From assembly GCA_032027045.1 (NCBI GenBank), contig JAVSMU010000001.1, positions 2,309,112 to 2,373,111 of the forward strand: a stretch of 64,000 bases of DNA, given 5' to 3'. Both the position numbers and the translations under genes were made by a program. The first letter of the stretch is position 1. Each line of letters opens with the position of its first letter. Shown in pieces: positions 18,881-19,332 of the stretch. The DNA is from Truepera sp. (GTDB taxonomy: Bacteria; Deinococcota; Deinococci; Deinococcales; Trueperaceae). The notes under the pieces were generated by a model, which saw only the letters and a program-made list of their open reading frames with translations, did no database searches and was not told the origin of the DNA.

Positions 18881-19088
18881 TCGGGCGTCCTCCCGCGCCA
18901 GCGGGCGGGGCCGCTCGGCGTCGCAGTCTAGGCTCAGTCTATATGCGGCTGCCAGGGGACGGACCCGGAACGGGGTGGGCGCGTACAAGTCACGTCTGAC
19001 ACGGCTTGGAGCGCACGGTGAAAGAACGGTGTACGCGCTTGCGTAGCGTAGTCGCCACATCCGTCGCCGCTTAGGTCTAACATGGCGC

Positions 19089-19258
19089 TACCACGGAAAG
19101 GAGGTGGTCTTATTCAACGCATAGAAATGACCGGTGGAGGTGCCCGCCTAGGGTAGCCCAGAGCCGCCTCCTGGATGAGTCGGAACGTGAGGTTCCCCGA
19201 ATTCCAGGCTGGCACCGACTCGCCCCCGACCTTCGGGCCGGGGGCGAGTTCTGTTTCG
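19089..19258 (+). ncRNA. candidate structured small RNA of unknown family (5-prime end uncertain)
   Basis: No credible ORF; the third-codon-position G+C (GC3) is low here. Nested helices: GGUGCC 19139-44 / GGCACC 19211-16; CCUGGA 19170-75 / UCCAGG 19203-08; GGAAC 19182-86 / GUUCC 19192-96. It ends in a strong intrinsic terminator. Confidence 0.35.
19218..19257 (+). terminator. rho-independent terminator (plus-strand orientation)
   Basis: 11-bp stem ACUCGCCCCCG/CGGGGGCGAGU extended by CC-UUCG-GG (UUCG tetraloop), followed by UUCUGUUUC. On the minus strand no U-tract follows. Confidence 0.75.
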
Positions 19259-19332
19259 AGCCGGAAGCGGCCGGCGCATCCGGGCAGTGAGCAACCGGCG
19301 GACCCGGGTACGAAGCAGCCGGCGAAGTCCCC

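Follow-up and report, generated by a model that had tools for sequence, protein, structure and literature searches.

A divergent Ms_IGR-5 homologue in Trueperaceae combines a complement of the whole 16S rRNA tail with a conserved near-cognate reading frame

We analysed a 64,000-nt stretch of the genome of a Truepera sp. (contig JAVSMU010000001.1; this whole stretch is called the window, and positions are counted from its first letter). A 452-nt gap between two minus-strand genes of the window probably holds an independently transcribed RNA gene of ~168 nt on the plus strand, predicted at 19090-19257 from a conserved -10 box and a terminator. It does not represent a new family, but a known kind of RNA in a new phylum: sequence comparison identifies it as a divergent Deinococcota homologue of the Rfam family Ms_IGR-5, beyond the reach of the Rfam model. 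Near its 5' end lies a complement of the entire free 3' tail of the 16S rRNA, followed by a 14-codon reading frame that opens with AUU. Judging from this anatomy, we think it probable that the element is an Ms_IGR-5-type ribosome-docking small mRNA or small RNA (sRNA) that works like the rre RNAs of alpha-proteobacteria. Our evidence consists of gene boundaries drawn by conservation, a covarying structure, homology to Ms_IGR-5, the top-ranking Shine-Dalgarno (SD) sequence of the genome and a conserved non-AUG frame.

The gap is bounded by the ATG of a minus-strand Fe-S oxidoreductase gene (18880) on one side and the stop of minus-strand bioY (19333) on the other, and these ends bear out a preliminary description of the DNA, which had called it non-coding. 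That description had proposed a BLASTN comparison with related genomes. Searching 40 relatives with 19060-19270 (blastn), we found the stretch conserved in 16 of 17 genomes of the same genus and in five further Trueperaceae genera, with no match outside this family at that sensitivity. In a strand-corrected alignment of 20 sequences, an invariant TAnnnT (TAACAT at 19078-19083, plus strand, its T, A and T being the invariant letters) stands at a fixed distance from invariant ACCACGGAAAGGAGGTGGTC and from the helix P1 described below. Next on the 3' side come a hypervariable stretch of 19-23 nt, invariant GACCAGTGGAGGTGCCCGCCGAGGGTARCC, a variable hairpin and then CCAGGCnGGCACCGA; the alignment closes with a terminator stem carrying compensatory substitutions and a run of T. 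We take TAnnnT to be a -10 box and predict that transcription starts at about A19090, ~7 nt downstream of it. The order and conservation of these parts place the predicted transcript between ~A19090 and ~19257, an interval that gives a full-length match of 149.9 bits to a covariance model (R2, below) and is conserved in Trueperaceae. Its intrinsic terminator (19219-19257, plus strand) has a GC-rich stem at 19219-19248 that contains one A.C mismatch and is capped by UUCG; the U-tract UUCUGUUUC comes next, at 19249-19257. The earlier picture of a structured plus-strand RNA of ~170 nt capped by a terminator is thus supported, the terminator included; the gene stands alone, and no gene lies downstream that it could control.

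The single 16S gene of this genome ends in ...GGAUCACCUCCUUUCU, its 3' end being read from the genome sequence. The extended SD sequence of the element, GGAAAGGAGGUGGUCU (19095-19110, plus strand; core GGAGG at 19100-19104), complements all 16 terminal nucleotides of that RNA in 16 contiguous pairs, of which 13 are Watson-Crick and three are G.U. When ~35,000 SD-like windows from both strands of the 2.92-Mb genome were ranked by predicted duplex energy with the 16S tail, this one came first, at -26.5 kcal/mol, and was exceeded only by the antisense of the 16S gene. The extended SD sequence is invariant in relatives. A second SD-like sequence, GGAGGUG, lies inside the reading frame (19136-19142, plus strand), and its GAGGU is universally conserved in the cross-phylum consensus of our alignment A7. 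A literature search by sequence words of the element returned 16S primer matches only.

A covariance-model scan of the gap against Rfam, also proposed earlier, was run on both strands with E up to 10. It gave no match to SRP, 6S, tmRNA, RNase P or known riboswitches, agreeing with the judgement previously made by eye. The sole notable match was to Ms_IGR-5 (RF02471), end to end over model positions 1-184, with 25.1 bits and E = 0.0019 against a gathering score of 45; under stricter filters, a search of the element's own genome for Ms_IGR-5 found no match. One genome per species was then scanned for an exact pattern (CCACGGRARGGAGGTGGTC, 12-36 nt, CCRGTGGAGGT), which yielded 94 loci, from Trueperaceae and Deinococcales metagenome-assembled genomes (MAGs) and from Actinomycetota, the latter comprising Miltoncostaeaceae, Gaiellaceae, other Thermoleophilia, one Bifidobacteriaceae MAG and one Slackia MAG. 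The covariance models R1 (for the 5' domain) and R2 were built only from Trueperaceae and pattern-set sequences. The best R1 match in one 6.5-Mb actinobacterial genome, locus L191 (32.4 bits; R2 32.6 bits, E = 6.6e-8), is scored at 185.6 bits by the Rfam Ms_IGR-5 model and is hence a bona fide member of that family. Other Actinomycetota copies, among them some with intermediate values of 36-39 Rfam bits, and a single further Trueperaceae copy (29.6 bits) fall within 21-39 bits, all under the cut-off. Because models built on Truepera sequences recover L191, and because the Rfam model aligns the window element over its full length, we conclude from this reciprocal profile detection that the two are homologous. 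The element had been described as an orphan, perhaps a novel sRNA. It does lie below every curated Rfam threshold, but its homology to Ms_IGR-5 and the design that it has in common with the rre small mRNAs (below) take away the novelty.

The two also agree in architecture: both have a 5' GGAAGGAGGUGGUC (the extended SD), a variable loop, GAGGUG, a long-range closing helix with ...CACC, AAUUCC and a terminator. Both are stand-alone, intergenic RNAs of ~170-185 nt with one copy per genome, and the Ms_IGR-5 consensus likewise has a UUG-started frame that ends at the equivalent UAG. They differ in host phylum (Deinococcota against Actinobacteria), in start codon (AUU, AUC or AUA in the Trueperaceae element against UUG, GUG or CUG in Ms_IGR-5) and in the interior of the 3' domain (P3/P4, GGGUAAC and CGCCUCCU), which is found in Trueperaceae only; the frame of the window element relative to the conserved GAGGUG block also differs from that of several actinobacterial clades. 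Ms_IGR-5 itself is an uncharacterised sRNA from the MSMEG_5794/5795 spacer of M. smegmatis, NAD-capped with +1A (bioRxiv 10.1101/2021.12.14.472595). It is expressed in S. lividans (PMC8079986), its transcript start and end have been mapped in S. avermitilis (PMC8780764), and ribosome footprints lie on its homologues in M. abscessus and M. smegmatis (PMC4974804).

R1 matches occur in 123 of the 301 sampled Deinococcota genomes and in 106 of the 401 sampled Actinomycetota genomes. About 93 of the 103 sampled Trueperaceae genomes have one, in a single copy each, and two further Deinococcales families are reached with E = 1e-12 to 1e-5. We set aside the Thermaceae-like R1 matches (23-25 bits) as untrustworthy; one of these, L165, was read and proved to be the beginning of a short-chain dehydrogenase gene. 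In that locus (G049:C1:2592480-2592790), GGAAAGGAGGTGGCC stands before the ATG of an apparent short-chain dehydrogenase (…VVVITGGTGGIGSAICHRL…), so that what the RNA models picked up is a false positive, an ordinary gene whose SD sequence is very strong.

The minimum free energy (MFE) is -75.7 kcal/mol (z = -1.9), and 9 of 200 shuffled sequences fold as well. Since this energy is unremarkable and a consensus scanner called nothing, the case rests on comparison with relatives, which supports the following structure. Helix P1 (19091-19137, plus strand; RNAalifold) consists of an outer part, CCAC 19091-19094 with GUGG 19134-19137, and an inner part, UGGUC 19105-19109 with GACCG 19129-19133. It holds the 5' part of the SD sequence, GGAAAGGAGG, in its internal loop and the start codon in its terminal loop, while the UGGUC of the SD sequence is paired in the inner helix. 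P1 is invariant within Trueperaceae and covaries between clades, with outer variants CGUGA/UCACG, CCAGAG/CUCUGG, CACA/UGUG and CACC/GGUG, and inner variants GGUCC/GGACC and CCAAC/GUUGG. Helix P2 (19139-19216, plus strand; 10 bp) pairs GGUGCCCGCC at 19139-19148 with GGCUGGCACC at 19207-19216; it encloses the 3' domain, and the final codons of the reading frame pass through its 5' arm. Its variants include GGUGGCAGUAGC/GCUGCUGCCACC and GGUACCAGCG/CGUUGGUUACC. The enclosed hairpin P3/P4 (19170-19208, plus strand) is made of P3, CCUGGA 19170-19175 with UCCAGG 19203-19208, and P4, GGAAC 19182-19186 with GUUCC 19192-19196, and contains a conserved AAUUCC at 19200-19205. The changes seen here are compensatory, from GGAACC/GGUUCC to GGAUCC/GGAUCC and to GACC/GGUU. 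The nested helices GGUGCC/GGCACC, CCUGGA/UCCAGG and GGAAC/GUUCC of the preliminary description were all recovered, as parts of P2, P3 and P4.

In a plain MAFFT alignment of 35 Trueperaceae-type sequences, 82.6% of the cells pair, against 36-50% when the partners are slid. For 73 sequences from two phyla (alignment A7), 91.0% of cells pair, against 38-52% with slid partners; the covariation score reaches 0.451, compared with 0.10 or less, both sides change in 30 of the 38 pairs, and none of 500 shuffles reaches the observed values, although this alignment was fitted to the model and leans towards the structure it was fitted to. Under the same model fitting, 95% of P2 cells are paired and six of its ten pairs have changes on both sides, and all ten pairs of the terminator stem, which is also present in the MFE fold, covary. 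Enforcing P1 and P2 together on the window sequence gives -72.4 kcal/mol, compared with -74.1 kcal/mol for the MFE, a cost of 1.7 kcal/mol. For Trueperaceae alone, RNAalifold prefers a local 5' hairpin, ACCAC/GUGGU with GGAGGUGCC/GCCGCCUCC. We reject it as the conserved fold because clades other than the CCAC-type ones lack its pairings, whereas the covariation of P1 and P2 spans phyla; it may be a real second conformation. Another candidate, a long-range helix of GGGUAACC with GGUUCCC, is broken by the GGAUCC/GGAUCC variants. Past the stop codon, Trueperaceae have a segment (19150-19172 in the window) with the consensus AGGGUAACU-CA-GGACCGCCUCCUG, which resembles the 16S 3' terminus minus helix 45 (AAGGUAACU...GGAUCACCUCCUU) and whose CCUCC could pair with the internal GGAGGUG, as it does in the alternative RNAalifold fold. 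This segment is not kept in every Trueperaceae copy and is absent from Actinomycetota.

The small open reading frame (sORF) begins with AUU at 19112, which starts 7 nt past the GGAGG core, and runs through 14 codons (IQRIEMTGGGARLG) to a UAG stop at 19154-19156 (plus strand). In all 85 unique pattern-set sequences a start-like codon follows the SD core at 5-11 nt and is in frame to a positionally conserved stop; the remaining two frames do so in 19 and 7 of the 85. Across the family a start-like codon and an open frame are kept in 126 of 126 unique sequences from two phyla, against 37% expected from shuffles of the variable loop, counts that overstate the number of independent events because the sequences are related to one another. 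The start codons are ATT (30), CTG (27), TTG (27), ATC (21), ATA (13) and GTG (8), and in none of the 126 is ATG used. They sort by lineage, with AUU, AUC or AUA in Trueperaceae, CUG or UUG in the other Deinococcales families, and UUG, GUG, CUG and some AUY in Actinomycetota. Even when no frame is imposed, the first ATH codon is in frame in 56 of 62 Deinococcota sequences, 15, 18 or 21 nt from the conserved block, and insertions and deletions come as multiples of three. The peptide is not conserved: its N-terminal half is hypervariable, its length ranges from 9 to 16 codons, and several actinobacterial clades read the invariant GAGGUG block in another frame and still keep the sORF. Because the frame is kept while the peptide varies, selection seems to act on the readability of the frame rather than on its product. 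The preliminary description had noticed a 24-codon frame from an ATG at 19082 and set it aside for its codon usage. That ATG shares bases with the -10 box and comes before the predicted transcription start at about A19090; the last 14 codons of the 24, from AUU 19112, are the conserved frame. An sORF kept across two phyla makes it probable that the RNA is not purely non-coding.

In these respects the element closely resembles the rre RNAs. The rreB of Bradyrhizobium is a 165-nt mRNA with a 17-nt SD sequence spanning the whole 16S tail, of which the 5' nucleotides alone are single-stranded, and a 14-codon sORF with a GTG start (Hahn et al., RNA Biol 14:1353; PMC5711450). It co-sediments with 30S subunits, it is weakly translated because of the long SD sequence and the GTG start, and its stability and turnover depend on the start codon (PMC5711450). 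The genes were reported in alpha-proteobacteria only, and that paper makes no mention of Actinobacteria, Deinococcus or Rfam. Like rre, the window element is a stand-alone (here predicted) transcript of about 165 nt that ends in a terminator, and over 16-17 nt it complements the free 16S 3' tail in full, the 5' nucleotides of the complement being single-stranded and the rest lying in a hairpin. The rre genes are marked by an sORF immediately preceded by 16 or more nt that complement the 16S 3' end, and by a non-AUG start and a short conserved sORF on a terminated transcript of ~165 nt; the window element has 16 contiguous pairs, AUU, 14 codons and ~168 nt. The sORFs of rre have 14-18 codons, their peptides are unrelated between clades and their genomic context is not conserved, all as in the family of the window element. 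The start codon differs, GUG in rre against AUH here, and 30S binding, weak translation and start-codon-dependent turnover have been demonstrated for rreB, whereas for the window element they are predicted. At the sequence level it has every hallmark of rre, and the resemblance is one of design.

The Rfam family CC2171 (RF01867) gives weak full-length matches to the family of the window element, at 15-30 bits (up to 30.2, in the Slackia copy). A second, weak CC2171-like match in the genome of the window element (L117, 16.6 bits) was dropped as apparently coding sequence. CC2171-type loci from metagenome contigs (GAAAGGAGGTGATCCA-GTG...; L199-L278 and others) have a GTG frame mostly of 20-25 codons (range 14-29). 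Among 107 unique loci of this type, the distance from GTG to the conserved CTGGAT is 30, 33, 36, 39 or 42 nt in 83 of 86, and this CTGGAT is the complement of GATCCAG in their SD sequence; their design is the same as that of the window element. The dual-function sRNAs SgrS/SgrT, RNAIII/hld and SR1/SR1P have defined base-pairing targets and functional peptides. The window element resembles them in being a small structured transcript that carries a short frame (whose translation we infer), and differs in that its peptide is not conserved and its dominant conserved feature is the 16S-tail complement.

The anatomy of the RNA together with the rreB experiments suggests how the element may work; expression, 30S binding and weak translation are what we would expect of it. 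The 5' end would display the 16-nt complement of the whole free 16S tail. The 5' half of the SD sequence, single-stranded in the internal loop, could act as a toehold for the tail, with the 3' half held in P1; P1 would then melt and the 30S subunit would be tightly docked. The near-cognate AUU, seven nucleotides past the GGAGG core, would open the 14-codon frame, and the over-long SD sequence and the non-AUG start would keep initiation rare and translation weak. A translating ribosome would have to melt both helices, P1 at its 3' strand and P2 at its 5' arm, and this unwinding would couple the fold of the RNA, and probably its turnover, to initiation. The peptide would not be the conserved product.

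Several observations weigh against this interpretation. The Ms_IGR-5 score at the window stays below the gathering threshold, and homology to CC2171 finds no support either, with 15.6 bits at the window against a gathering score of 75. The scan with consensus promoters and terminators called neither a sigma-70 promoter nor a terminator (the stem that the simple scanner missed is the one with the A.C mismatch), and the sole TTGACA-like hexamer sits 20 nt from the -10 box. The cross-phylum pairing values come from a model-fitted alignment, and the 126 of 126 count is inflated by shared ancestry. AUU, AUC and AUA are very poor initiators, and the frame might hardly be translated. Finally, over-expression of rreB gave no growth phenotype (PMC5711450), so that the idea of 30S docking is without demonstrated consequence.

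Could the RNA be purely non-coding, its 16S-tail complement a 30S decoy or sponge or a protein site, or its C-rich CGCCUCCU an mRNA seed, and the frame never productively translated? Nucleotide conservation peaks in the SD sequence, GAGGU and P2, codon third positions included, which fits such an RNA, as do the unconserved peptide, start codons drawn from the weakest known classes and the weak translation of rreB (PMC5711450). We nevertheless consider it unlikely, since an unread frame should not stay open, with an SD-spaced start and indels in threes, throughout the 126 sequences and both phyla, and since ribosomes leave footprints on the mycobacterial homologues (PMC4974804). Two further points count against it: actinobacterial versions lack the CCUCC segment, and over-expressed rreB did not slow growth (PMC5711450). 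The opposite alternative is an ordinary small-protein gene, in which the 14-aa peptide is functional and RNA structure only tunes expression. A conserved frame at the right distance from an SD sequence, the conservation of the RreB and RreR peptides within their own clades (PMC5711450) and the 3-nt indel phase of the CC2171-type loci all agree with it. What makes it improbable is the peptide itself, with its hypervariable N-terminal half and variable length; its conserved C-terminal residues come from P1- and P2-forming nucleotides that are invariant even at synonymous sites, and actinobacterial clades that read GAGGUG in another frame have unrelated peptides, among them ...TSGGARRG, ...GPHEVTGC and ...WTCEVAAR.

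A third alternative makes the element a cis-acting part of a neighbour: it could serve the convergent bioY as a bidirectional terminator, act as a leader or attenuator, or belong to the promoter region of the divergent Fe-S oxidoreductase gene. The hairpin does lie 84 nt downstream of the bioY stop, on the opposite strand, and many Trueperaceae have the element and the same Fe-S oxidoreductase gene of ~750 aa in divergent orientation. On the minus strand, however, the stem continues into UCGGUGCC and not into a U-tract, and conservation covers the whole ~168 nt rather than the hairpin alone. A riboswitch or leader-peptide attenuator would need a co-oriented gene downstream; no plus-strand gene follows the element in the window, where the next gene is the convergent bioY. 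From locus to locus the gene downstream differs in identity and in strand, and the neighbours in Actinomycetota are unrelated. Among the loci compared we found no neighbour gene conserved across phyla; neighbours were picked by GC content at third codon positions, stop-to-stop frames in this GC-rich DNA having given spurious merged clusters. We regard a cis role as very improbable.

We favour, then, a ribosome-docking RNA of the Ms_IGR-5 type. A wider proposal, which we put forward only tentatively and think rather doubtful, is that Ms_IGR-5 with the Deinococcales element and the rre/CC2171 RNAs of alpha-proteobacteria form one ancient cross-phylum class, whose selected function is to report on or buffer the initiation machinery rather than to make a peptide. 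Free 30S subunits, the anti-SD tail or start-codon proofreading by IF3 might be what is monitored or buffered. Such a function would explain why the strongest SD sequence of a genome is paired with an almost always near-cognate start codon. Recurrence of the design across phyla would point to a general, unexplained ribosome-linked function, for which M. smegmatis, Streptomyces, Truepera radiovictrix and Bradyrhizobium would be tractable test hosts. The comparison supplies Ms_IGR-5, to which Rfam assigns no function, with an anatomy, namely complementarity to the 16S tail in its full length, a helix gated by a toehold and a conserved, never-AUG mini-ORF; it widens the range of the family from Actinobacteria to Deinococcota and, by design, ties it to rreB, the only experimentally studied example, connecting two poorly understood families. 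For annotation, the Rfam model of Ms_IGR-5 is too narrow, and AUU, AUC and AUA may serve as sORF starts throughout one bacterial family.

Upstream of the element, the conserved start of the Fe-S oxidoreductase is ATG 18880, not the ATG at 19060 that opens the longest ORF. A sequence conserved in the genus, CAGTCTATA(G/T)GC (18935-18945 in the window), can be read as a TATAGA -10-like box on the minus strand and is likely the promoter of this gene. The 8-bp stem 18979-18986/19031-19038, included in the earlier picture of the structured RNA, does exist. We place it outside the RNA because it lies upstream of the conserved -10 box and is only partly conserved within the genus. It forms an inverted repeat, GCGCGTAC ... 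GTACGCGC (18979-19038), whose arms are separated by 44 nt and which lies between the sRNA promoter and the divergent Fe-S oxidoreductase gene. Several genomes of the same genus also have its boxes, (A)GTACAAGT and GGTGTAC, and some of these show a compensatory change in the flanks (ACTCAGTAC/GTACGAGT). Rather than forming RNA structure, it may bind a regulator in the divergent promoter region. Other RNAs were met on the contigs compared: a 6S RNA in the Slackia MAG (L095 5879-6056, 102 bits) and a TPP riboswitch in a Miltoncostaeaceae MAG (L026 1003-1114, 61 bits).

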